Shown here piece after piece: positions 1 to 11,154 of a stretch of 11,154 nt of DNA. The stretch is from Candidatus Auribacterota bacterium. GTDB taxonomy: Bacteria; Auribacterota; UBA6266. Each line of letters starts with the position of its first letter. Position 1 is the stretch's first letter. The stretch covers positions 1-11,154 of the forward strand of contig JAGLRQ010000007.1 in assembly GCA_023136205.1 (NCBI GenBank). Direction: 5' to 3'. A program made the position numbers and the translations under genes. The notes beneath the pieces are model-generated. The model had not been told where the DNA came from. It was given only the letters and a program-made list of their open reading frames with translations, and did not search any database.

Positions 1-453
1 TCTAAAAAGCTAAAAATGGACTTTGCCGAAATGGATGACCTTATCGAACAGGAAGCTGAAATGACAATATCAAAAATCTTTACAGAAAAAGGCGAAAAAT
101 ACTTTAGGACTATGGAACGTGAAGTGGTAAAGGGCCTTGCCTCAAGAAACAATATAATTATTTCAACCGGAGGAGGCGTTGTTCTCAACAAAAACAACCT
201 GGATGACTTCAAGAAAAACGGTGTTACAATCTCACTTATGGTTTCTCCAGAGATTGTACTTAGAAGAACAGCAGATACAAATCACAGACCGCTGCTCAAT
301 GTCAGTGATAAGTTAAAAGAAATAACAAATCTTCTCAAAACAAGGAAAGACCATTATGAGCAAGCGGACTATATAATAGAGACTGATAAACTTACGCCTG
401 AAGAAGTGACCCGCGAAATAATCCAAAGATTAGAAGAACGGTGTAAAAAATAA
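1..453 (+). CDS. aroK: Shikimate kinase, 5'-truncated at the window edge
   Basis: ORF 16..453 stays open in frame back to base 1 (SKKLK-MDFAEMDDLIEQE...). The sequence matches the part of shikimate kinases after the P-loop (D-x-D region, ISTGGGVV, RPLL). The Walker A motif must lie off-window. Stop TAA 451..453. Confidence 0.9.
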   Translation, partial: SKKLKMDFAEMDDLIEQEAEMTISKIFTEKGEKYFRTMEREVVKGLASRNNIIISTGGGVVLNKNNLDDFKKNGVTISLMVSPEIVLRRTADTNHRPLLNVSDKLKEITNLLKTRKDHYEQADYIIETDKLTPEEVTREIIQRLEERCKK

Positions 454-469
454 TCACGAAACACTGTTC
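436..469. terminator. Candidate hairpin at the convergent aroK/pilD junction (possible bidirectional terminator)
   Basis: GAACGGTGT (436..444) pairs with ACACTGTTC (461..469): 9 bp including one G.T. The 16-nt A-rich loop contains the aroK stop, and only 17 nt separate the two stop codons. Weaknesses: large loop, no clean U-tract on the plus transcript, and the G.T becomes a C.A mismatch on the minus transcript. Confidence 0.25.
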
Positions 470-470
470 T

Positions 471-1271
471 TCAAAACAATCCCAAGTACCAATCAACCAA
501 TTTGTTGCCCCAGAGAATTGATACCACAGCACCTATGGCAAGATAAGGACCAAATGGAACTTTGCCTTTCCATGTTTTGTTTTTGATTAAAAGGGCTGTG
601 CCTCCGATAACTGTTCCAACAATTGATGAAATCGCTATACTCAAAAAAACAACAAGTACCCCGCCAAAAGAACCTATCATCGCAATCAGCTTAACATCAC
701 CAAAACCCATCGCATCCTTTTTAAGAAGTTTTGAACCGGCCAGGGACACCGCGCTAAGAACAGCAAAACCTGTCACGGCTCCAAGAAAAGACCTGTACAA
801 ACCAAGATACCACTTTGCTTCACCCTGAAGATGCGGGAAAAATGACGAAGCAAGAAGAGCAAAAACAAGCCCGATAATATTACATTCATCCGGTATCACA
901 AAATGTTTTAAATCAATAAATGAGACAACAATAAGAAGAGAAAAGAACATTATCCTGAAAACAACCTCCGCGGCACCCGAGGAGAAAAGAAATGCTGTCA
1001 GGAAAAGAATTCCTGTAAGCAGCTCTACTATAAAATAGACAGGCGAGATAGGCTTCCCGCAATTTCTACATTTACCCTGAAGGATAATATAACTTAATAA
1101 TGGAATATTATCATACCACTTTATTTTTGCCTTGCAGTTAGGGCAATGTGATAGTGGAAATATAATTGAAAGCTCCTCAGGAAGACGATAAATACAAACA
1201 TTTAAAAAACTTCCAACGATTGTTCCGAAGATAAAAAAGACTGATGACCAAAATATATTAATTGGATTCAT
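471..1271 (-). CDS. pilD: Type IV prepilin peptidase / N-methyltransferase (peptidase A24 family)
   Basis: 266-aa polytopic membrane ORF with an N-terminal four-Cys cluster (CPNC...CRNC). Both catalytic Asp contexts are present (FVIPDE and GFGDVKL), typical of A24 prepilin peptidases. ATG at 1271 overlaps the upstream stop as ATGA, and no obvious SD precedes it. Confidence 0.9.
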   Translation of the reverse strand: MNPINIFWSSVFFIFGTIVGSFLNVCIYRLPEELSIIFPLSHCPNCKAKIKWYDNIPLLSYIILQGKCRNCGKPISPVYFIVELLTGILFLTAFLFSSGAAEVVFRIMFFSLLIVVSFIDLKHFVIPDECNIIGLVFALLASSFFPHLQGEAKWYLGLYRSFLGAVTGFAVLSAVSLAGSKLLKKDAMGFGDVKLIAMIGSFGGVLVVFLSIAISSIVGTVIGGTALLIKNKTWKGKVPFGPYLAIGAVVSILWGNKLVDWYLGLF

Positions 1272-1555
1272 TGTAATTCATCACTTAAATCCTTTAATTC
1301 AGGATTTACACCTTTAACTAAATTTAATTTCCACTCACGATGCCAGTTTTTTAATTGTTTTTCACAATTAATCGCGTCTGTTATTTGTTCAAAAAACTCG
1401 TAATAAACCAAAAAGCTGCATTTATATTTCAATGGGAACTTTGCTCCGATACCTCTTTTATGTTCTGCTAATCTGCGTAATAAATCATTTGTTACACCGA
1501 TGTAGAACGTGGTTCTTTTGTAGTTCGACAATATGTAAACATATCCGCTGTTCAT
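1268..1555 (-). CDS. Small stand-alone GIY-YIG (URI-domain) nuclease family protein
   Basis: GYVYIL...FYIGVTNDLLRRLAEHK...E..K.W.R.WK is the GIY-YIG core as seen in small UPF0213/YhbQ-like proteins. The ORF track starts at a TTG (1579) whose first 8 codons are simply the translated hairpin repeat. I call the first ATG (1555, MNSGYVYIL...) as the start. Stop TGA 1268..1270 overlaps the pilD ATG. Confidence 0.88.
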   Translation of the reverse strand: MNSGYVYILSNYKRTTFYIGVTNDLLRRLAEHKRGIGAKFPLKYKCSFLVYYEFFEQITDAINCEKQLKNWHREWKLNLVKGVNPELKDLSDELQ

Positions 1556-1564
1556 GTTGTTTTT

Positions 1565-1592
1565 AAGATCCCGAAACAAGTTCGGGATGACA
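1565..1592 (-). repeat. 28-nt hairpin repeat, copy C (canonical orientation TGTCAT-CCCGAA-CTTGT-TTCGGG-ATCTT on the minus strand)
   Basis: Plus strand reads AAGATCCCGAAACAAGTTCGGGATGACA, identical over 28/28 nt to 1729..1756. It forms an 8-bp stem ATCCCGAA/TTCGGGAT with a 5-nt loop. It ends 9 nt upstream of the GIY-YIG ATG. Confidence 0.9.
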
Positions 1593-1594
1593 TG

Positions 1595-1647
1595 TTAGGT
1601 GTTCGGAATAACATTTTAGGTATTTTAATATCTTAAGTATTCGGAAT
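1595..1647 (+). repeat. Two decayed half-copies of the hairpin repeat (right arm only)
   Basis: TTAGGTGTTCGGAAT (1595..1609) and TTAAGTATTCGGAAT (1633..1647) match 13/15. Both resemble the right arm plus flank of the full repeat (GTTCGGGATGACATGTT versus GTTCGGAATAACATTTT, 14/17). No complementary left arm is present. Confidence 0.6.
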
Positions 1648-1676
1648 TTTTTCCACTTATTACCATGTTGCCTCAC

Positions 1677-1704
1677 TGTCATGCTGAACTTGTTTCAGCA
1701 TCTT
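1677..1704 (+). repeat. 28-nt hairpin repeat, copy B (inverted relative to the other two, covarying stem)
   Basis: Plus strand reads TGTCAT-GCTGAA-CTTGT-TTCAGC-ATCTT, versus TGTCAT-CCCGAA-CTTGT-TTCGGG-ATCTT for the reverse complement of the other copies (24/28 identity). All 4 differences are two compensated base pairs (C:G to G:C and C:G to T:A). Flanks and loop are unchanged. Confidence 0.9.
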
Positions 1705-1728
1705 TTCTCCTTTACATCCTGGCCTTTC

Positions 1729-1756
1729 AAGATCCCGAAACAAGTTCGGGATGACA
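1729..1756 (-). repeat. 28-nt hairpin repeat, copy A
   Basis: Identical to 1565..1592. On the minus strand it starts 18 nt after the aroE stop. It forms an inverted pair with copy B across a 24-nt spacer. Confidence 0.9.
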
Positions 1757-1774
1757 GTTTGGATATTTATCGAA

Positions 1775-2686
1775 TTACAATTCTTTTACCTTAAAATGTT
1801 TTTTTAGGGCTTCTTCCATTGCTTTGTAAGCGTTTAAAAATGGCTGTTTCCTGCCCGTAAACTCTTCCATCCATAAATCAGATGCCCACATTCCCTGGTA
1901 GAGGAGCATTAATAACCCTCCACAACATTTCAGCCCCTTCTGTTTAGCATCTTTTAATAAGGGAGTTTCCAAAGGATTATAAACAAGGTCAAACACAAAC
2001 TGTTCAGAATGCAAAACTTCTGTGTTGATACTTTTTCTTGTATCTCTGCCCATTCCAAGAGGAGTGGCGTTTACAATTATATCTGCTTCTTTTACATGTT
2101 CATCAACTGCGCTTTCGGCAACATTTCTTATCTCCGGCTTATATCTATCTGTCCCGTATGATGCGGCAAGATGCTTTACTAACTCAGAAGCCTTAGAATT
2201 ATCCACATCAAAAACAAAAATTTTCTCAGCATCTTCAACAAGTGCTCCTGCCGCAACTGCTCTCCCCGCGCCTCCAGCACCCGCAATAAAAACTTTCTTA
2301 TCTTTAAAAAATTTTACAGCTTTTGAATTTAAGCCAAATTTGTTCTTATATGCCCCAAGAAAACCATAAACATCTGTATTATATCCCCAGAGAACTCCAT
2401 TTTTGTTCACAATAGTATTAATCGCGCCAATAATGTTTACGTAATCATTTTCGTCATCAATTTTATCTACTAAACCTTTTGCGTCAACCTTATAAGGAAT
2501 AGTTACATTACACCCTAAATATTCACCAGAGTCCCTGATTTCTTTAATTTTGGATTCTAGTTCTTCTGGAAGGATATCGCATAACTCATAAGTAACATCA
2601 ACACCGAGAGCCTTAAACCCCGCGTTCTGGAAAACAGGTGAAGCCGAATGGCCTAATGGATGGCCCAGAAGAAGTACTTTTTTCAT
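1775..2686 (-). CDS. aroE: Shikimate 5-dehydrogenase
   Basis: 303-aa ORF with the N-terminal GHPLGHSASP substrate motif, NVTIPYK, and the glycine-rich NADP site GAGGAGRAV. The ATG sits 2 nt after the leuA stop (TAAccATG) with no strong SD, suggesting translational coupling. Confidence 0.92.
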   Translation of the reverse strand: MKKVLLLGHPLGHSASPVFQNAGFKALGVDVTYELCDILPEELESKIKEIRDSGEYLGCNVTIPYKVDAKGLVDKIDDENDYVNIIGAINTIVNKNGVLWGYNTDVYGFLGAYKNKFGLNSKAVKFFKDKKVFIAGAGGAGRAVAAGALVEDAEKIFVFDVDNSKASELVKHLAASYGTDRYKPEIRNVAESAVDEHVKEADIIVNATPLGMGRDTRKSINTEVLHSEQFVFDLVYNPLETPLLKDAKQKGLKCCGGLLMLLYQGMWASDLWMEEFTGRKQPFLNAYKAMEEALKKHFKVKEL

Positions 2687-2688
2687 GG

Positions 2689-4233
2689 TTAAATCAACCT
2701 GCTTCTCTTTCTTGAAGTTTTACCGGATATAACCTTATTGACCGCGTTGAGATAAGCTTTTGCGCTTGCTTCGACAATGTCAGTACTCGCGCCCCTGCCA
2801 TTAACAATCCTACCGCTGCCAAAGTCAACTTTGACAATAACTTCACCAAGAGCATCTTTTCCTTCTGTCACAGAATGGATACCGTAATTAAGTAAGGACC
2901 CTTTAATTTTTGTTATTTTGTCTATTGCTTTATAAATCGCGTCTACAGGCCCATCACCGGAAGCATCTTTGGCAATTTTAACTTTATCTTTTTCCAGGGT
3001 AACAGAGACTTTCGGAATGTCACCGGTCTTGTAACTTATATTCAGGGTTTGAAATTTATAGACTTCTTTAATCTCCGCGATTTCATCATTAACAATCGTT
3101 ATAAGGTCTTCATCATATATTGTTTTCTTCTTGTCAGAAAGAATCTTAAATCTACTGAATGCTTTCTCAAAGTCCTTGTCAGAAAGTTTAAACCCAAGAC
3201 TTTTGATTCTTTCTTTAAAGGCATGCCTGCCGGAATGCTTGCCCAAGACGAGTTTTGTTTTTTCCACGCCAACATCCTGAGGTTTCATTATTTCATATGT
3301 CTTTCTTGACTTTAATATCCCGTCCTGATGTATTCCCGCCTCATGGGCAAAAGCATTCTCCCCAACCACAGCTTTGTTAGGTTGAACAACGATTCCGGTA
3401 ATACGGCTGACAAGACGGCTTGTCTTAATTATCTCTTCAGTCTTGACATCAGTGTAACACCTAAAATAATCACCCCTTGTTTTAATACCCATGACAATTT
3501 CTTCGATTGAACAGTTTCCCGCCCTTTCACCAATCCCGTTTACGGTACATTCAACCTGGCGGGCTCCATTTATCACAGCGGCAAGCGAATTAGAAACAGC
3601 AAGGCCAAGGTCATTATGGCAATGAACACTTATAACAGCCTTGTCTATATTTGAAACATTTTCAAACAGGTATTTTATGGTATTTGCGAACTCTCCGGGT
3701 ATCGCGTACCCCACTGTATCCGGTATGTTTACAGTGGTGGCTCCTGCTTTTACGACCGCCTCCACCACTCTTGCAAGAAATTTGGATTCTGTCCTTGACG
3801 CATCTTCAGGAGAAAATTCAATATCTTTACAAAACTTTTTCGCGTATTTCACCGCTTCAACAGCCTGGGAAAGAATTTCTTCCTCGGCTTTTTTGAGTTT
3901 GTATTTCATGTGAATTTTGGATGTCGCGAGAAAAACATGTATTCTCTTTCTCTTAGCCTTCTTAACAGCTTCAGCCGCACAATCAATATCCTTCTTTAAC
4001 GACCGTGCCAATCCGGAAATTATCGGGCCGTTAATCTCAGAGGCAATACCCTTCACCGCCTCAAAATCACCGGGAGAAGAAATAGGAAACCCCGCTTCTA
4101 TCGCGTCTACATTAAGACGCACAAGTTGACGGGCAACCTCAAGTTTCTCCTTTATGTTCATACTCGCTCCCGGAGACTGTTCCCCATCTCTCAGGGTTGT
4201 GTCATATATTACTATTTTATCTTTCTTTTTCAT
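2689..4233 (-). CDS. leuA: 2-isopropylmalate synthase
   Basis: 514 aa with TLRDGEQSPG at the N-terminus, VHCHNDLGLAV metal-site context, GIGERAGN, and a C-terminal LeuA-dimer/regulatory-type domain. Length fits the bacterial short form. The paralogue citramalate synthase (CimA) cannot be strictly excluded by eye. Confidence 0.88.
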   Translation of the reverse strand: MKKKDKIVIYDTTLRDGEQSPGASMNIKEKLEVARQLVRLNVDAIEAGFPISSPGDFEAVKGIASEINGPIISGLARSLKKDIDCAAEAVKKAKRKRIHVFLATSKIHMKYKLKKAEEEILSQAVEAVKYAKKFCKDIEFSPEDASRTESKFLARVVEAVVKAGATTVNIPDTVGYAIPGEFANTIKYLFENVSNIDKAVISVHCHNDLGLAVSNSLAAVINGARQVECTVNGIGERAGNCSIEEIVMGIKTRGDYFRCYTDVKTEEIIKTSRLVSRITGIVVQPNKAVVGENAFAHEAGIHQDGILKSRKTYEIMKPQDVGVEKTKLVLGKHSGRHAFKERIKSLGFKLSDKDFEKAFSRFKILSDKKKTIYDEDLITIVNDEIAEIKEVYKFQTLNISYKTGDIPKVSVTLEKDKVKIAKDASGDGPVDAIYKAIDKITKIKGSLLNYGIHSVTEGKDALGEVIVKVDFGSGRIVNGRGASTDIVEASAKAYLNAVNKVISGKTSRKRSRLI

Positions 4234-4247
4234 TTCTCAGTTCCTGC

Positions 4248-5240
4248 TTATTTCGCAAGCCATTTCATCATTCCTCGAAGTTTTGCTCCGACTTTCTCAA
4301 TAAGATGTTCCTTCCCCTGTCTTACAAGCGCGTTAAACCGGGGCTTTCCTACCTGATTTTCAAGGAGCCACTCTGTCGCGAATTCACCGCTTTGTATTTC
4401 TTTGAGAATTTTTTTCATTTCCCTTCTTGTCTTTTCAGTAACAATCCTCGGGCCTCTGGTCACATCTCCATATTCCGCAGTATCAGAAATAGAATATCTC
4501 ATACCCGCAATACCCTTCGCGTACATTAGGTCAACTATAAGCTTAAGCTCGTGTAAACATTCAAAATAAGCTATTTCCGGCTGATAACCTGCCTCAACCA
4601 GGGTGTCAAAACCCGCTTTTACAAGTTCTGTCGTACCGCCACAAAGAACAACCTGTTCACCAAATAAATCCGTTTCGGTTTCTTCCGCGAATGTGGTTTC
4701 TAAAACTCCGGCTCTTGTCCCGCCAATTCCTCTCGCGTAAGACAAAGCTGTTTTCTTCGCCTTTCCGGAAGCATCCCGAAAAACGGCTATAAGACATGGC
4801 ACTCCTCCTCCCCCTGTGAAAACATCCCTAACAAGATGTCCAGGGCCTTTTGGAGCAACCATAATAACATCAACGTCCGCCGGCGGAACAATCTGGCCGT
4901 AATGGATATTAAAGCCATGGGAAAAAACCAGCGTTTTCCCTTTTTTCATATGCTTCTTAATTAACTCTTTATAAACAATAGACTGAACCTGATCGGGAAC
5001 AAGTATCTGGATAATATCGTTTTTTTTCGCAGCTTCATCCGCGCTTACCGGTTTAAAACCATGCTTTACCGCAAGCTTGTAGTTAGCGGTCCCCGGAACT
5101 TCAGCTACCGTTACCTTAACTCCGCTGTCCCTGAGATTTTGCGCCTGGGCATGCCCCTGGCTGCCATAACCTATAATAGCTACCTTTTTATTTTTGATAA
5201 GTTTTATGTCCGCGTCTTTGTCATAATACATCTTTGTCAT
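4248..5240 (-). CDS. ilvC: Ketol-acid reductoisomerase (class I)
   Basis: 330 aa with [19 protein letters not shown] dinucleotide-binding motif and a conserved C-terminal knotted-domain sequence (EYGD, LLENQ). SD-like AAGGGG lies 6 nt before the ATG. Confidence 0.96.
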
Positions 5241-5303
5241 CCCTTGCCCCTTTCGTTGAATTAAAAATTTGTTTGCCCTTTGAACTTTTTTTGAAAGACT
5301 TTT

Positions 5304-5777
5304 TTATCCTCTCGCAATAGCTATCCTGCCTGTCCGTGACAGCTCTTTTATACCAAAGGGCCTCAGCATATCAAATATGGCATTCACTTTCAAATCGTTG
5401 CCTGTTACCTCGATAGTCATACTTTTTGTTTTTATATCAATTATCTTTGCTCTGAATATCTCAACTATCTGCAATACTTCGTGTCTGGTTTTGCCGTCTA
5501 CTGAAACCTTAACAAGTATAAGCTCTCTGCCGACAAAATCCTTTCCCATAAAATCCTGAACTTTTATAACATCAATAAGCTTATTAAGCTGTTTACAAAC
5601 CTGTTCTACAACAGCATTGTCCCCTTTTACTACTATAGTCATTCTGGAAATAGAAGGGTCCTGCGTCTCACCTACGGCCAGACTGTCAATATTGAAGCCG
5701 CGGGCACTAAACAATCCCGCGATTCTTGCCAAGACACCAGCTTTATTTTCAACCAAAACGCTAATTGTATGTTTCAT
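5304..5777 (-). CDS. ilvN: Acetolactate synthase small (regulatory) subunit
   Basis: ACT-domain start MKHTISVLVENKAGVLARIAGLFSARGFNIDSL is typical of IlvN/IlvH. The ORF track begins at a TTG (5813). ATG 5777 is preceded by GGAGG (5787..5783) with a 5-nt spacer and matches where homologues start, so I call 5777. Confidence 0.92.
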   Translation of the reverse strand: MKHTISVLVENKAGVLARIAGLFSARGFNIDSLAVGETQDPSISRMTIVVKGDNAVVEQVCKQLNKLIDVIKVQDFMGKDFVGRELILVKVSVDGKTRHEVLQIVEIFRAKIIDIKTKSMTIEVTGNDLKVNAIFDMLRPFGIKELSRTGRIAIARG

Positions 5778-5799
5778 CACAACCTCCGTTTTTATTTCG

Positions 5800-5881
5800 C
5801 CTGCCTGACCCAAGGAATTCGTAGAATTCCCGGGACTAAAGTCCTTGGAATCTTTCAGATTCCTAAGGGCCGGCAGGCAGG
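5800..5881 (-). other. Nested-palindrome structured element in the ilvB-ilvN spacer
   Basis: Outer 8-bp stem: CCTGCCTG (5800..5807) with CAGGCAGG (5874..5881). Inside it: GGAATTC/GAATTCC (5814..5820 with 5824..5830, 3-nt loop), GGAC/GTCC (5833..5836 with 5841..5844), GGAATCT/AGATTCC (5847..5853 with 5857..5863, 3-nt loop), and a competing CCAAGGA/TCCTTGG pair (5810..5816 with 5842..5848). The outer stem's 3' arm on the mRNA ends 12 nt before the ilvN SD. Confidence 0.6.
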
Positions 5882-5894
5882 GATTTATATCTTT

Positions 5895-7619
5895 TTATGC
5901 CATTGATTCTATCATCTCACTAAGCGACGCCCCCGCGGCAACCATAGGAAACACATTCTCTTCCGGTTTAACTATAAATTCTAAAACTGACGTATTTTTC
6001 GACTTTATCGCCTTTTTAAGGGCAGGAATAACTTCAGATTCCTTTGTAACCCTTATTCCATCAGCTCCAAAAGCTTCGGCAGCCTTTATAAAATCAGGTA
6101 AATAAGAATGGCATTTGCCATCTTTGCAATAAGTTATACCTTTCTTGCCATGCGGGCCTTTGGTGTTTAAAACAGTTGAAGAATACCTTCCCCCATAGAA
6201 AAGTTCCTGCCACTGCCGTACCATTCCCAGGCAGCCGTTATTCAATATAATTATATTGATAGGAAGCTTATTCAAAACACAGGTTGTCAGCTCCTGTATG
6301 TTCATCTGAATGGAACCATCACCCGCAATATCAAAAACCAGCTTATCGGGACACCCAACCTGGGCTCCCATCGCCGCGGGAAGACCGTATCCCATCGTTC
6401 CCAACCCGCCGGAAGAAATATAAGTTCTCGGATTGATGTAATTATAAAACTGGGCCGCCCACATTTGATTTTGCCCTACCTCCGTAACTATAATCGCGTC
6501 ACCCTTTGTAAGCTCCCATATCTTCTCAACTACAAACTGAGGCTTGAGCATTCCTTTTTTCGCGTACTTTAAAGGATATTTCTTTTTCCATTCGGCAATT
6601 TTTTTAACCCACGATTCTGTTTTGCCTGCCTTTACACATTTATTAAGTTCGACTAAAACCTTTTTAACATCACCAACAACTGGAACATCAACATTAACAT
6701 TTTTTCTGATCGATGTAGGATCTATATCTATATGAATTATCTTTGCATGCGGAGCAAATTCGGAAATTTTGCCCGTAACCCTATCATCAAACCTTGCTCC
6801 AATGGCAATTAGAAGGTCCGCGGACTGGATTGCCAGATTTGCATACTTTGTACCATGCATACCCAGCATCCCCAATGAAAGCGGGTCCGTTCCCGGAAAA
6901 GAACCTAGCCCCAGGAGAGTTGTTGTAACAGGAATTTTCATTTTCCTGGCCAGTTTTGTCATTTCCCGCGAACCACCCGAAATTATAACTCCGCCGCCGG
7001 CATATATAAGGGGCTTTTTAGCCTTTGCTATAAGCTCGGCAGATTTTTTTATCTGCCTAAGATGGCCTTCATATGTAGGCTTATAGCTCCTTATATCAAC
7101 CCTGTCGGGATATTTTTTGCGCGTAACGGCATTTTGTATATCCTTTGGAATATCAACCAATACGGGGCCCGGCCTTCCGGAATTTGCAATATAAAAGGCC
7201 TCTTTCAAAATATGCGGAAGTTCATCAACATCCTTAACCAGATAATTATGTTTCGTAATTGGACGGGTTATTCCCGTAATGTCCGCTTCCTGAAAAGCAT
7301 CATTTCCTATCATACGGGTAGGAACCTGTCCCGTAATAGCAACCATTGGAACAGAATCCATGTATGCAGTTGCTATGCCGGTAACAAGATTTGTCGCACC
7401 GGGGCCTGAAGTCGCTATACAAACACCGGTTTTGCCTGTGGCTCTGGCATATCCATCAGCCGCATGCGCGGCACCCTGTTCATGCCTTGTCAGTATGTAT
7501 TTGATATCCGATTTATAAAGAAGATCGAATATATCTAAAACAGCACCACCGGGATAACCAAAAATAATCTCAACTTTCTCTTTTTTAAAGCAGTCTAAAA
7601 GTATTTCCGCACCTTTCAT
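5895..7619 (-). CDS. ilvB: Acetolactate synthase (acetohydroxyacid synthase) large catalytic subunit, biosynthetic type
   Basis: 574 aa. ThDP enzyme signatures are present: [22 protein letters not shown], and the ThDP/Mg motif [14 protein letters not shown]...NNG. GGAGG (7630..7626) lies 6 nt before the ATG. Confidence 0.95.
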
Positions 7620-7703
7620 TATTTACCTCCATTCATTAAAAGCAACGGGCAATTATCCGTTACAATCACCAGTCCGAAATAAACATTCTTCGCCCTTTGT
7701 TTC

Positions 7704-9362
7704 TCACTTTTTAAATACAGCCCCAGTTCCCGCGGATGTAACCATCTCGGAATACCTTGCAAGGTAACCGGTTTTGATTCCCGGTTTTTTCAATTTCATA
7801 GTTCTCTTTCTCTTCTTTATTTCATCAGAACTAATACCAAGTTCAAGTTTCCTGTTTGGAATATCAAGAGAAATAATGTCTCCGTTTTTAACCAGAGCAA
7901 TAAGGCCGCCCTCCGCAGCCTCAGGAGAAACATGTCCTATGCATGGCCCCCTTGTTCCACCTGAAAAACGCCCATCAGTAATAAGCGCGACAGATTTTCC
8001 AAGGCCCCTGCCTATAATAGCTGCCGTGGGTGATAGCATTTCTCTCATCCCGGGACCGCCTTTAGGCCCTTCATATCTTATAACAACTACCATTCCCTTT
8101 TTTACCTTACCCTGCATTATCGCGTTCATTGCATCTTCTTCTTTATTAAAACATATGGCTTTACCTTTAAATTTCATCATTGATTTTTCAACAGCTGACT
8201 GTTTAACTACGGCCCCGCTTTCCGCAAGGTTGCCCCGCAAAATAGCTATCCCTCCTTGTTTATGATGAGCTCTCTTTAACGGACGAATAACATCTTCATC
8301 CTTTATCACAGCTTCGGCGGCAATATTGCCGGTGGTTCTGCCCGAAACCGTAGGCCTCGCGGCAACCTTACTACCCAACCTTTTAAAAACAGCCGGTATC
8401 CCACCCGCATTATGAAGGTCCTCCATAAAGTACCCGTCGGGAGAAGGATTCATTTTTGCAATATGAGGAGTAACCCTGCTTATTTTATCAAATAATTCAA
8501 CAGGGATATCCAAGCCCGCCTCATGGGCTATAGCGGTAATATGTAAAACCGTATTAGTCGATCCTCCAAGAGCAACATCAACCCTTATAGCATTTTCTAT
8601 AGATTTACGGTTAACCACCTTTTTAGGGGTTATATTTTTCCTGATAAGCTCAACCGCCCTTATCCCGCTTTCATGGGCTATCCTCTTTTTCTGTGCGGAA
8701 ACAGCAAGTGCTGTAGCACAGTATGGCATTGAAAGCCCCATAGCTTCAGTTGCGCATGCCATAGTATTTGCAGTAAACATTCCCTGACATGAACCGGCAC
8801 CCGGACATGCAACCATTTCAAGCTCACATAATGTTTTTTCTGAAATCTGACCTGCTTTGTATTTGCCAATAGCTTCAAAGGTATCAGTAACCAGGGATGT
8901 TCTCCTACCATAATGCCTTCCTGTAAACATTGGCCCGGCAGTTACAACAATAGCGGGTATATTCAGGCGAAACATCCCCATAATCATCCCGGGGGTTATC
9001 TTATCGCAGTTTGTTAAGAAAACAAGCCCATCCAAAGCGTGTGCGGTAGCTACTGCTTCAATCATATCGGCAATAAGTTCACGAGAGGGAAGAGAATATT
9101 TCATTCCCTTATGCCCCATAGCTATGCCATCGCATATCCCCGGAATACCAAAAACAAAAGGCCTTCCGCCACCGGCATAAACACCATTTTCAATAGCTCT
9201 TTCAAGCTGCTTCATGTCAACGTGGCCGGGAATCAAATCAGTAGCAGAGGAAGCTATCCCAATAAATGGCTTCTTCAAATCACCTTTTGTAACACCGGTT
9301 CCAAACAATAAAGCTCTATGAGGAGCTCTCTCCAACCCTTTTTTAATCGCATCACTTTTCAT
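7704..9362 (-). CDS. ilvD: Dihydroxy-acid dehydratase
   Basis: IlvD/Edd family with conserved Cys-containing contexts ([27 protein letters not shown]) that I read as the Fe-S ligand region. The ORF track starts at ATG 9431, which has no SD and adds 23 residues not expected in IlvD. ATG 9362 gives [19 protein letters not shown], the usual IlvD N-terminus, and follows GGAGA (9371..9367). Confidence 0.93.
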
Positions 9363-9455
9363 AATATCTCCACAATGCCTTTTACTCTGTAACTCAATAA
9401 CTCTTTCTCTTCCATTTAATCGAAATTTCATCTTACTTAAATTAAAAGAGCATGT

Positions 9456-9497
9456 AAATAAAAAACCCGCCGCCTCTTTTACCGAGGTAGCGGGTTT
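9456..9497 (-). terminator. Intrinsic terminator of the ilv leader (attenuator regions 3:4)
   Basis: Minus-strand RNA reads AAACCCGCUACCUC-GGUAAAA-GAGGCGGCGGGUUU followed by UUUAUUU. The stem has 14 stacked positions with one A.C mismatch and one G.U, is GC-rich, and is followed by a U-tract. It lies about 95 nt upstream of the ilvD start. Confidence 0.82.
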
Positions 9498-9519
9498 AAA
9501 TTTTCAATCTCTGTTGCAA

Positions 9520-9609
9520 TCAGATCCGAACACAGACCACCGCGACCTCGCCCCTTTTAAGGACGAGCACCACAAGCACTAAAAGTAAACTTGTCATAGC
9601 GGCAATCAT
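9520..9609 (-). CDS. ilv operon leader peptide, 29 aa: MIAAMTSLLLVLVVLVLKRGEVAVVCVRI
   Basis: Hand-translated; the ORF is below the ORF-track length cutoff. AGGAGA (9622..9617) lies 7 nt upstream of ATG 9609, and the stop is TGA 9522..9520. There are ten consecutive Leu/Val codons (9588..9559), and 16 of 29 codons are Ile/Leu/Val. It sits between a promoter-like site and a terminator in front of BCAA biosynthesis genes. Confidence 0.75.
   Translation of the reverse strand: MIAAMTSLLLVLVVLVLKRGEVAVVCVRI
9540..9567 (-). promoter_or_regulatory. Attenuator regions 1 and 2 (anti-antiterminator / antiterminator segments)
   Basis: CUCGUCCU (9567..9560, leader codons 15-17) pairs with GGGGCGAG (9554..9547): 6 WC plus 2 G.U pairs, loop UAAAA. 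The overlapping segment GAGGUCGCGG (9549..9540) pairs 9/10 with the terminator 5' arm CCGCUACCUC (9493..9484) and mimics the terminator 3' arm GAGGCGGCGG. Confidence 0.65.
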
Positions 9610-9634
9610 TCCATGTTCTCCTTATTCCAACTTA

Positions 9635-9663
9635 AAAATACCTTTAAAATCGTTAAATGTCAA
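9635..9663 (-). promoter_or_regulatory. Sigma-70-like promoter for the ilv leader/operon
   Basis: Minus strand reads TTGACA (9663..9658), a 17-nt spacer, then TATTTT (9640..9635). It lies 12 nt after the antiporter stop and about 25 nt upstream of the leader ATG. This is a sequence match only, and the consensus for this unknown taxon is assumed. Confidence 0.5.
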
Positions 9664-9675
9664 GGGTTTTAATAA

Positions 9676-10623
9676 TTACCCCATTGACCTATTCACTATA
9701 AACACAATGTAAAAAACATATAAAAGAATCAGCAAAATGCCCGTTTTCCTGCCAATTCTCTTTTTTGTGTATACAGACAGAGAAACTAATATTAAACCGA
9801 ATATAAAATAATAGTTATCAAAGGAAACAATTTCTTTCGGAACAGAAAAGGGGAAAAACATTGAGACAATACCGATCACAAACGCGATATTAAATATACA
9901 GCTTCCTATTACATTTCCCGCGGATATATCCCCTTCTTTTTTCGCGCTGGCAATTGTACTTGCAAAAAGTTCAGGTAAAGATGTCCCAATGGCAACAATT
10001 GTTAATCCTATAAGGAGCTTACTTATCCCCAATGCCTCAGCTATCTTCACAGCACTATTGACGGTAAAATGCCCCCCGGCAGTAAGAACGGTAAGCCCCA
10101 GTAAAACAATAATGAAATTTTTTACAATTTTTACATTCCCCGGTTTAGGAGGAATACTCAAAACATCGGTTTCTCTCCTGTTTTTTAATTGAAATACTAC
10201 ATATCCAGCGAGAAATACAAAAAGGACAGCACCCATATACCGGGTAATTACACCTGTAAAGCAAAACAAAACAAAAAGAGCCGTTATCCCAAGCAAAACA
10301 GGCATGTCTATTTTCAAAACCTGCGGGTGAATTTTAATCGGCCTTATTAATGCAGCTATTCCCATTACCAAAAATATATTTGAAATATTGCTGCCTACAA
10401 CATTCCCGACACATACGTCATAGGACCCACGTAGTCCAGCAAAGAAACTCACGATAAACTCAGGGGAAGATGTTCCAAAAGCAAAAAGAGTAAGCCCGAT
10501 TACAAGTTTTTTTACATGGAAATTCAGAGCGATGTTTACACCACCCCTAATAAGCATTTCAGCACCAAAATACAGCATGAAAAAGCCTGCAATTAAAACA
10601 GCACTGTTAAGAAATATTCCCAT
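9676..10623 (-). CDS. CaCA-family cation/Ca2+ antiporter (YrbG/NCX-like sodium:calcium exchanger)
   Basis: 315-aa, roughly 10-TM ORF with two internally repeated alpha-repeat motifs, GNVVGSNISNIFLVMG and GNVIGSCIFNIAFVIG, each preceded by a GTS(S/L)PE segment. Confidence 0.88.
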   Translation of the reverse strand: MGIFLNSAVLIAGFFMLYFGAEMLIRGGVNIALNFHVKKLVIGLTLFAFGTSSPEFIVSFFAGLRGSYDVCVGNVVGSNISNIFLVMGIAALIRPIKIHPQVLKIDMPVLLGITALFVLFCFTGVITRYMGAVLFVFLAGYVVFQLKNRRETDVLSIPPKPGNVKIVKNFIIVLLGLTVLTAGGHFTVNSAVKIAEALGISKLLIGLTIVAIGTSLPELFASTIASAKKEGDISAGNVIGSCIFNIAFVIGIVSMFFPFSVPKEIVSFDNYYFIFGLILVSLSVYTKKRIGRKTGILLILLYVFYIVFIVNRSMG

Positions 10624-10632
10624 TCTTATCCC

Positions 10633-11154
10633 TTATCTGGAAACAGTAAGCGGCAGACGGCAAACGTCCGTCGGCCTGTCCTGCCACGTAAATTTTATTT
10701 CAACATCGCTTAAATTTCTCTTTCTGAGTGCGTTACTTACAACATCAGCGGCCCGGCCCGGCTCATTATGATCCTGACTCATATGTGCAAGAAATACCAC
10801 GTTAAGTTCGGGGCCGGCTACCTCTTCTACAAGACGGCCCAGGTTTTTATTTGACAGGTGGCCTTTTCGTCCCACTATTCTTTGTTTTACCTCCCACGGT
10901 CTGTTTCCATTGAAGACCATTTCCTCCTCATGATTCGCCTCCAGAATAAGAACATTACTTTGTTTTATTCTTTCTTTTACAAGAGAAGTCGGGAACCCAA
11001 TATCCGTAGCAATGCAAATTTTGCCTCCGGGGTGCATCAGCTCAAAACCAACAGGATCAATTCCATCATGTGCTATAGAAAAAGAATTTATCCTAAATTT
11101 TTTTAACTCAAACTCCACCCCGTTTTCAAAAGGAAAAAACATATTTTTATTACG
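10633..11154 (-). CDS. MBL-fold metallo-hydrolase (YycJ/WalJ-like), 5'-truncated at the window edge
   Basis: C-terminal part of a beta-lactamase-fold hydrolase, with motifs FSIAHDGIDPVGF, ATDIG, LEANHE and KGHLSN. The frame stays open from ATG 11142 to base 11154 (RNKN-MFFPF), so the HxHxDH motif and the true start are expected off-window. Confidence 0.8.
   Translation of the reverse strand, partial: RNKNMFFPFENGVEFELKKFRINSFSIAHDGIDPVGFELMHPGGKICIATDIGFPTSLVKERIKQSNVLILEANHEEEMVFNGNRPWEVKQRIVGRKGHLSNKNLGRLVEEVAGPELNVVFLAHMSQDHNEPGRAADVVSNALRKRNLSDVEIKFTWQDRPTDVCRLPLTVSR

Follow-up and report, generated by a model that had tools for sequence, protein, structure and literature searches.

The leader region upstream of ilvD

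The minus strand of the 11,154-nt stretch of DNA analysed here (the window: contig JAGLRQ010000007.1, positions 1 to 11,154, GC content 40.6%) carries an operon for branched-chain amino acid (BCAA) biosynthesis, ilvD-ilvB-ilvN-ilvC-leuA-aroE, and upstream of it a gene that NCBIfam profile searches identify as encoding a Ca/Na antiporter. A first-pass annotation of this DNA had interpreted the leader that separates the antiporter gene from ilvD as an attenuator of the ribosome-mediated, leader-peptide type. Read in the direction of transcription, the leader comprises the following elements.

9635..9663, minus strand: promoter-like site P1, TTGACA (9663..9658) and TATTTT (9640..9635) with a 17-nt spacer, found by reading the sequence and by consensus scan.
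9617..9623, minus strand: Shine–Dalgarno (SD) sequence AAGGAGA, 7 nt before the leader ATG; all relatives have AGGA or AGGAG at 5–7 nt.
9520..9609, minus strand: leader open reading frame (ORF) of 29 codons plus TGA (9522..9520), encoding MIAAMTSLLLVLVVLVLKRGEVAVVCVRI; read from the sequence and present in 6/6 orthologues, its start and stop falling in matching alignment columns.
9596..9607, minus strand: region 0, GAUUGCCGCUAU, from the G of AUG to codon 5; predicted 5′ strand of a 12-bp long-range helix with 9546..9535 (RNAalifold).
9559..9588, minus strand: putative regulatory run, codons 8–17, LLLVLVVLVL (6 Leu, 4 Val); IIVVLLVLVL or ILVVLLVLVL in relatives.
9547..9567, minus strand: predicted hairpin 1:2 of 9 bp, made up of CUCGUCCUU (9567..9559, codons 15–17), an AAA loop and AGGGGCGAG (9555..9547).
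9535..9549, minus strand: region 2/2′, in which GAGGUCGCGG (antiterminator 5′ strand, 9549..9540) overlaps GUCGCGGUGGUC (partner of region 0, 9546..9535).
9498..9534, minus strand: ORF tail, stop codon and spacer, with a tentatively placed, variable hairpin nested in the antiterminator loop.
9460..9497, minus strand: predicted intrinsic terminator 3:4, with 5′ arm AAACCCGCUACCUC (9497..9484), loop 9483..9477, 3′ arm GAGGCGGCGGGUUU (9476..9463) and U6 tract (9465..9460).
9430..9458, minus strand: promoter-like block P2, TTTACA-17-TAAGAT, from the consensus scan; the relatives have TATTAT or TATCAT as -10 hexamer, and the spacer is conserved.

Most of the parts listed in the first-pass annotation can be read directly from the DNA: the minus-strand TTGACA-17-TATTTT, AGGAGA (9622..9617) placed 7 nt before the ATG (9609..9607), and the 29-codon ORF (coding part 9609..9523), in which 16/29 residues are Ile, Leu or Val (I/L/V) and ten consecutive codons specify Leu or Val. 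What lies in the 5′ leader of this biosynthetic operon is a short ORF with an SD sequence and a start codon, whose clustered codons specify amino acids made by the downstream enzymes (the products of ilvD, ilvBN, ilvC and leuA). Runs of this kind are rare. A six-frame translation of 632 kb contains only nine I/L/V-only runs of at least nine residues, seven of them copies of the leader and two of them simple repeats. The description of the ORF as unannotated holds only in part, as it appears as a 29-aa hypothetical protein in the public records of a relative; an exact look-up in a protein collection recovered three of five leader peptides, one of them under that name.

A two-codon mini-ORF, ATG-GAA-TGA (9606–9614, minus strand; ATG-AAA-TGA at L001:1921–1929), overlaps the leader start codon through a shared ATGA and is absent from loci L002–L004. 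It is probably unused, since its ATG lies only 3 nt from the SD sequence.

Conservation and distribution of the leader

The closest IlvD loci belong to an uncultured metagenome-assembled genome (MAG; 94% identity), a Candidatus Auribacterota MAG (82%), bacterium UBP3_UBA6266 (81%) and a fourth MAG (78%), and one closest-relative protein is named 'Candidatus Aureabacteria' in the protein database; Nitrospirota IlvD proteins are about 65% identical. Candidatus Auribacterota is a phylum of the Planctomycetes–Verrucomicrobia–Chlamydiae (PVC) group, and the window, like its five closest relatives, belongs to the uncultured Candidatus Auribacterota/UBP3 bacteria. The low-GC Firmicute setting assumed in the first-pass annotation was therefore a wrong taxonomic guess, and with it goes the expectation of a T-box in place of an attenuator: both are ruled out by the closest IlvD loci and by the lack of any T-box match in 9300..9750 at E <= 10.

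Orthologous leaders are found between the antiporter gene and ilvD at loci L001–L004 and L091/L092 (IlvD 78–94% identical to that of the window; L091/L092, on a 1.99-Mb contig, 80%). They have in common the P1 hexamers, the SD sequence, the 29-codon ORF with its fixed stop, the I/L/V run, the terminator and the complementarity between antiterminator and terminator strands. The first-pass annotation had suggested aligning the ilvD upstream regions of relatives, and the short ORF rich in BCAA codons is indeed conserved in the five closest; the covariation also looked for is taken up below. Orthologue peptides include MIAAMTGLLLVLVVLVLKRDEVAVACIRI, MITAIKAIIVVLLVLVLKRDEVAVISVRF, MITAIKAIIVVLLVLVLKRDEVAVVSACF and MITAIKYILVVLLVLVLNRDEVAVISVHV. 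All 60 run codons across the six orthologues encode Ile, Leu or Val, and this is so even though nucleotide identity to L002–L004 over codons 6–14 is only 15–16/27 (56–59%).

Identity between L002–L004 and the window is strongly uneven along the leader. The P1 hexamers are 100% identical and the P1 spacer about 32%; region 0 at the start of the ORF is 87% identical and regions 1-2-2′ are 82–91%; the ORF tail and spacer fall to 43–54% and the terminator rises again to 82–87%. Overall, the flanking segments (P1 spacer, 5′ untranslated region, ORF tail and post-P2 sequence) have diverged to 30–55% identity whilst the functional blocks stand at 82–100%, a mosaic that is the pattern expected of an attenuator. 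For P1, both hexamers are identical (6/6) in 4/4 aligned relatives and the spacer is constant in length, with only 5–6/17 positions identical in L002–L004. The case for P1 rests on this conservation rather than on the consensus match itself, because the window holds no excess of promoter-like matches overall (22 observed against 24.9 expected).

The element is specific to this clade. Among 75 IlvD loci from other phyla, the 700 nt upstream of ilvD never contain an I/L/V-run ORF, save for weak runs of 5–6, and the next-closest IlvD relatives (70–71% identity, L093–L095) lack the leader; a search via IlvD added one further clade member only (P0005, locus L091). Ten metagenome matches to the conserved core GTCCTTNNNAGGGNNGAGGTNGCGG were discarded as chance, all of them being in high-GC DNA with no leader. 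At two of the next-closest loci (L093:1575–1990 and L094:455–873), the region upstream of ilvD instead holds a conserved gene for a 78–79-aa DUF465-like protein, two terminator-like hairpins and a TTGACT-type promoter.

Alternative RNA structures

The minus-strand transcript of the whole leader folds at -62.7 kcal/mol (z = -4.14 against shuffles). The predicted intrinsic terminator, a conserved hairpin followed by U6, separates the leader ORF from the first structural gene, as had been claimed: its hairpin folds at -21.4 kcal/mol (z = -5.07; 0/200 shuffles as good), and the orthologous hairpins are of equal or greater stability (-21.5 kcal/mol in L001, -27.3 to -28.0 in L002–L004), with 96.7% of alignment cells paired. 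In the relatives the terminator ends in GGGUUUUUU.

Confirming a further point of the first-pass annotation, GAGGUCGCGG (9549..9540) is complementary at 9/10 positions to CCGCUACCUC (9493..9484), part of the terminator 5′ arm, so that the antiterminator 2:3 shares a strand with the terminator. This pairing is 10/10 in L002–L004 and 8/10 in L001. Among dinucleotide shuffles, 6/2000 give as good a duplex for L002, 16/2000 for L004 and 67/2000 for the window, where the duplex is thus only moderately unusual.

The antiterminator strand had been thought to be held in its turn by the last codons of the Leu/Val run. A 9-bp hairpin, 1:2, is indeed present there, folding at -13.7 kcal/mol with its extension and retaining 9/9 pairs in 5/5 sequences, with the one-sided changes CG>UG, UG>UA and GC>GU. 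Its overlap with GAGGUCGCGG, however, amounts to just 3 nt, and the part of the antiterminator strand that it leaves uncovered is held by region 0. This helix, 0:2′, escaped the first-pass annotation. It is predicted by RNAalifold from the five aligned leaders (the same consensus also recovers 1:2 and the terminator), it encloses hairpin 1:2, and its start-codon strand contains CCGCUA, a look-alike of the terminator 5′ arm. In the alignment 95% of its cells are paired; shuffles as good number 29/2000 for the window, 46/2000 for L001 and 0/2000 for L002–L004. Hairpin 1:2 takes in the putative regulatory codons 15–17, and in modelling it would act as an anti-antiterminator. The hairpin in the ORF tail occurs in every orthologue in different registers, at an identity of only 16–20/37.

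Both sets of helices fit the alignment better than displaced versions of themselves. For the helices of the presumed OFF state (0:2′, 1:2 and 3:4), 97% of cells hold standard pairs, against 45–61% when partners are slid by 1–3 columns; for the ON-state helix 2:3 the figures are 94.5% and 31–51%. All stem substitutions are one-sided and wobble-compatible.

A proposed co-transcriptional switch

To model the decision, we folded only the RNA already past the leading edge of the ribosome, with region 4 not yet made. In this co-transcriptional model the antiterminator forms with a probability of 0.97–0.98 when the ribosomal A site is on codons 11/12 to 16/17, a result obtained for 5/5 sequences; in the window, codons 11–16 read V-L-V-V-L-V. 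From codon 19/20 onward the probability is 0, because region 2 is then inside the ribosome. Stalls at codons 8–9 are ineffective in the window and in L001 (probability 0.01–0.36) because hairpin 1:2 still forms. The effective stall window thus consists of Leu and Val codons only, which fits an operon that contains the genes of the common pathway and leuA but no Ile-specific gene.

One feature of the mechanism put forward in the first-pass annotation needs revision. A ribosome at the stop codon was said to cover region 2. With a footprint of about 15 nt 5′ of the A site, however, a ribosome whose A site is at 9522 would reach back only to about 9537 and would not cover 9549..9540. Region 2 would instead be hidden by the ribosome during its passage over codons 19–27 and, once it has moved on, by 1:2 and 0:2′ as they refold in its wake. 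At the other side, the leading edge of a ribosome at the stop (about 9508, with a standard footprint) never reaches the terminator stem (9497).

The following sequence of events can be proposed. When Leu- and Val-tRNAs are charged, a ribosome translating the leader would traverse the ten-codon run and region 2/2′ (9555..9535) to the stop at 9522; the antiterminator strand would stay occluded by the ribosome and then be recaptured behind it by 1:2 and 0:2′, leaving region 3 free for region 4, and RNA polymerase would terminate at U6 (about 9460). When charged Leu- or Val-tRNA is short, a ribosome stalled with its A site at about codons 11–16 would cover region 1 and expose GAGGUCGCGG, which would pair with the freshly made terminator 5′ arm (9493..9484) before region 4 is made; no terminator would form and transcription would proceed into ilvD. 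An untranslated leader would be expected to adopt 0:2′, 1:2 and 3:4 and so terminate, a state of super-attenuation.

Taking together the conserved ORF, run, stop codon, terminator, antiterminator and P1 with the behaviour of the co-transcriptional switch, we consider that the element most likely acts as a classical attenuator of transcription, mediated by the ribosome on a leader peptide and governing read-through from P1 into ilvD-ilvB-ilvN-ilvC-leuA-aroE; in this respect the proposal of the first-pass annotation has withstood each computational test able to refute it.

A number of observations nonetheless weigh against it. Equilibrium folding of the full transcript keeps the terminator at every ribosome position. 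The check suggested in the first-pass annotation, masking the run (9559..9588) before refolding, fails to switch the fold, with the terminator state still 7.5–20 kcal/mol better than a forced antiterminator. In our models the switch exists only under a kinetic assumption, because equilibrium always favours the terminator, and it is only the kinetic version of the check that discriminates. The antiterminator itself has one or two mismatches in the window and in L001, and that of L001 is no better than shuffles (361/2000). No helix shows a compensatory pair altered on both strands among the five aligned sequences, where all shuffles equal the observed values and the covariation statistics are uninformative; to judge from this alignment, the RNA structures are conserved, but covariation does not prove them. 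As the six orthologues fall into just two shallow subgroups, much of the conservation might be due to common descent alone. The absence of any Rfam leader family (Leu_leader, Trp_leader, His_leader, Thr_leader and others) at gathering threshold belongs here too, the best being Trp_leader at 26.6 bits against 41. The last and most important point is the promoter-like block P2.

A second promoter-like block downstream of the terminator

P2, like helix 0:2′, was missing from the first-pass inventory. It begins two bases past the U6 tract and, including its spacer, is identical to its counterparts in relatives at 25–30/30 positions (for example L002:2911–2940 and L091:9909–9938); similarity between the subgroups stops directly 3′ of its -10 hexamer. 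Its match to consensus in the window is 9/12, compared with 10/12 for P1, and reaches 10/12, scored by eye, in relatives with TATTAT or TATCAT. As a predicted promoter between the terminator and ilvD, P2 could drive ilvD independently of the attenuator and so bypass it, and it is mainly for this reason that our confidence in the attenuator is not higher. Unlike the P1 spacer, that of P2 is conserved, which hints that it may be an operator. Searching the window and 21.7 kb of L091 gave no second copy of the spacer motif TTTTAATTTAAGTA, and hence nothing that points to a regulon. At L001 (2100–2250), about 130 extra nucleotides lie between the P2 block and the start of ilvD, among them a moderately GC-rich sequence, GGGAACCTAGAGCCTGGAGCCCGCAGCC, that is absent from the window.

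These features allow a broader and more speculative reading, to which we would give perhaps a minor share of credence, in which the unit is a two-input control module that combines a start-codon decoy, a real second promoter with its operator and a well-formed classical attenuator of the PVC group. The region 0 decoy would lock the antiterminator strand, and only ribosomes loading before 9546..9535 had been made could open the switch; P2, with its invariant spacer as operator for a regulator, would provide attenuator-independent expression of the BCAA and shikimate genes. Were this true, the window would supply the PVC group with a well-formed classical attenuator, in contrast to the atypical TrpL of Chlamydia (PMC7755916).

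Alternative explanations

P2 is also central to the best of the competing explanations, that the leader is an independent small gene. Here the ORF would encode a 29-aa hydrophobic micro-protein, membrane-bound or resembling a type I toxin, with P1 and the terminator as its own, whilst the ilv operon would be transcribed from P2; the hairpin would merely end the small gene and the antiporter transcript. The peptide does have a hydrophobic stretch of 16 residues with KR(G/D)E after it, public records call the ORF a hypothetical protein, and the high conservation of P2, the loss of subgroup similarity just after its -10 hexamer and a consensus score close to that of P1 are all as this explanation would have them. 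However, 16 residues are short for a membrane span, and the run is pure I/L/V, lacking F, A, G, M, S and T, which membrane helices usually contain. Where the peptide is conserved (the MI-A start and the KR-EVAV that follows the run), it coincides exactly with helices 0:2′, 1:2 and 2:3, which argues for selection on the RNA rather than the peptide, and the C-terminal residues vary whilst the position of the stop is fixed. A plain terminator, moreover, needs neither an upstream complement of its 5′ arm nor a start-codon decoy, and the ORF is strictly linked to ilvD in every orthologue. As to a type I toxin, such genes have an antisense RNA that overlaps them or lies next to them and often occur in several copies at varying locations. 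Here the consensus scan detects no promoter-like (antisense) site on the plus strand of 9200..9900, and the gene is present once, always in the same place beside ilvD. We regard the micro-protein as unlikely.

Less likely still is an attenuator in which the ORF is incidental and the sensor is not a ribosome: uncharged tRNA (a T-box), a small ligand (as in a ppGpp riboswitch) or an RNA-binding protein. Alternative terminator and antiterminator structures are common to all such mechanisms, the ilv-leu operon of B. subtilis has a T-box and some ilvB genes have ppGpp riboswitches (cited in PMC5794164 and PMC10272879). Yet searches of 9300..9750 at E <= 10 returned no match to a T-box, to ppGpp/ykkC or to any other riboswitch, the spacer between ORF and terminator (43–54% identical) holds no conserved aptamer-like domain, and an incidental ORF would not retain its frame, length, SD sequence, stop and I/L/V run across about 40% nucleotide divergence.

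That there is no regulatory device at all, but a chance ORF beside the terminator of the antiporter gene, conserved through close kinship, is scarcely credible: the two shallow subgroups, the want of two-sided covariation and the unenriched promoter-like matches would permit it, but the non-functional flanks have already fallen to 30–55% identity against 82–100% for the functional blocks, the I/L/V run is without counterpart in the 632-kb background and the terminator has a z-score of -5.

The operon and its neighbours

The genes downstream of the leader were identified by NCBIfam equivalog matches and have the same order and spacing in L091.

1775..9362, minus strand: operon ilvD-ilvB-ilvN-ilvC-leuA-aroE.
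7704..9362, minus strand: ilvD (9362..7704).
5895..7619, minus strand: ilvB (7619..5895).
5304..5777 (approximate), minus strand: ilvN (about 5777..5304).
4248..5240, minus strand: ilvC (5240..4248).
2689..4233, minus strand: leuA, not cimA (4233..2689).
1775..2686, minus strand: aroE (2686..1775).

The longest ilvD ORF begins at an ATG at 9431 (575 aa), the start adopted in one database record (P0001). Three observations indicate that the true start is at 9362 (552 aa) and that the 23-residue extension is an annotation artefact: ilvD homologues are 550–552 aa in length, the NCBIfam profile alignment begins at residue 1 of the protein starting from 9362 (MKSDAIKKG...), and in L001 the equivalent ATG is preceded, six codons upstream, by an in-frame stop. 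The gap between the antiporter gene and ilvD is consequently 313 nt rather than the 244 nt given in the first-pass annotation, which assumed the start at 9431. The artefactual extension begins immediately 3′ of the P2 block.

Several further features of the operon were seen. aroE is coupled translationally to leuA within the BCAA operon (2-nt gap; window 1775–2686, minus strand), and a shikimate kinase gene (16–453, plus strand) converges on the operon; shikimate kinase and chorismate synthase genes do likewise in L091, where the corresponding region is 16541–21659. Given that the arrangement is conserved, a step of the shikimate pathway may be co-regulated with the supply of Leu and Val. The ilvD-ilvB spacer (7620–7703, minus strand) is 84 nt long in the window, compared with 22 nt in L091, and contains a hairpin (GTAACGG...CCGTTGC, 7663..7642) followed by TTTTAATG; a weak internal terminator and a processing site are possible readings, as is an insertion. 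The interval from aroE to the prepilin peptidase gene (window 1268–1767) holds a 103-aa ORF with a GIY-YIG nuclease domain (1268..1579) and, ahead of it, three copies of a repeat of about 30 nt that contains a hairpin (1561–1603, 1675–1704 in inverted orientation, and 1725–1767). Because aroE directly overlaps the peptidase gene in L091, ORF and repeats look like a small inserted mobile element.

Significance and comparison with known systems

What is new here is a clade-specific probable attenuator with a start-codon decoy helix and a downstream promoter-like block; the kind itself is well known. BCAA leader-peptide attenuators are already known in Proteobacteria and Actinobacteria and have been described in Staphylococcus (PMC5794164), Listeria (PMC5864092), and Leptospira and Corynebacterium (PMC10272879), and the argument for novelty made in the first-pass annotation is not supported. 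No new question is opened, because the mechanism is a textbook one and lineage-specific ilv upstream ORF (uORF) attenuators are found regularly. For annotators, the gain is a concrete element absent from Rfam, whose ORF is at present missed or entered as 'hypothetical protein', and the correction of a protein record that starts ilvD 69 nt too early, at the ATG just 3′ of P2. The element is also a compact and clear example of its kind, with an uninterrupted ten-codon run and four nested alternative helices.

In Rfam, where no family of any kind scores at its threshold, the Trp_leader match aligns on hairpin 1:2 and the terminator. Matches to BcKCsr2, ohsC, RsaJ and PyrR, likewise below threshold, are carried by the terminator hairpin (ohsC_RNA, 23.5 bits against 50) and were rejected. 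No Listeria small RNA family gives a match in 9300..9750 at E <= 10.

Within the PVC group, the sole leader-peptide precedent that we found in the literature is the putative TrpL of Chlamydia, described as atypical and unvalidated (PMC7755916); regulation of this type is not mentioned in the searched passages of the paper describing Auribacterota. The ilv-leu T-box of B. subtilis resembles the present element in that terminator and antiterminator compete ahead of a BCAA operon and tRNA charging is read, but there the uncharged tRNA is sensed directly, through a specifier loop and the T-box sequence, with no translation involved.

The enterobacterial ilvL (ilvGMEDA), ivbL (ilvBN), leuL and trp leaders are alike in having an SD-led short ORF with clustered codons for the end product, mutually exclusive anti-antiterminator, antiterminator and terminator structures, and a U-tract terminator before the first gene; those of ilvGMEDA and ilvBN also share multivalent sensing of several amino acids. 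An extra helix of the 'protector' type occurs in the leu, his and thr leaders, as it does in the element here. There is no sequence homology, however, and the present ORF extends across region 2, its stop lying 18 nt further on instead of before or at that region. Its run is longer (ten uninterrupted I/L/V codons), its decoy strand is the start-codon region, a promoter-like block lies 3′ of the terminator and the host belongs to a candidate phylum of the PVC group.

Lineage-specific motifs with I/L/V-rich uORFs have been described as ilvB-II (Corynebacterium), ilvB-OMG (several phyla) and ilvB (Leptospira), and the authors conclude that ilvB genes are commonly controlled by uORF attenuation (PMC10272879). 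They share with the window a conserved I/L/V-rich uORF and, between it and the BCAA genes, a strong terminator stem. These motifs precede ilvB whereas the present one precedes ilvD, and ilvB-II peptides are 15–17 aa long with BCAA codons mainly at four positions (PMC10272879); Rfam searches detect no similarity to them in sequence or structure.

Two experimentally supported parallels come from Firmicutes, and they run counter to the statement in the first-pass annotation that this phylum typically uses a T-box for ilv-leu. In S. aureus, an attenuator upstream of ilvD is experimentally supported, mutations in peptide and terminator relieving repression (Kaiser et al. 2018, PMC5794164). Like the present element it lies directly upstream of ilvD, the first ilv-leu gene, and consists of a 26-aa Ile/Leu-rich leader with a ribosome-binding site (RBS), a conserved terminator and an alternative antiterminator. 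Peptide and RNA are unrelated in sequence, though, the antiterminator sequesters the poly-U tail rather than the 5′ arm, and the terminator is placed 52 nt past the stop (PMC5794164), compared with 22 nt to the start of the stem here. CodY adds a second layer of control in S. aureus (PMC5794164); none is implied in the window.

In Listeria monocytogenes, Rli60 is a ribosome-mediated attenuator upstream of ilvD, and mutating its ATG or RBS results in super-attenuation (Brenner et al. 2018, PMC5864092). It is unrelated in sequence, and its peptide has 13 aa as against 29 aa in the predicted element here. The four-segment logic, with 2:3 as antiterminator and 3:4 as terminator, is nevertheless the same, and in Rli60 too the stability of the terminator (-17.1 kcal/mol) exceeds that of the antiterminator (-10.3 kcal/mol) (PMC5864092). 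A preference for the terminator at equilibrium is therefore true of validated attenuators as well, in which the decision is a kinetic one.

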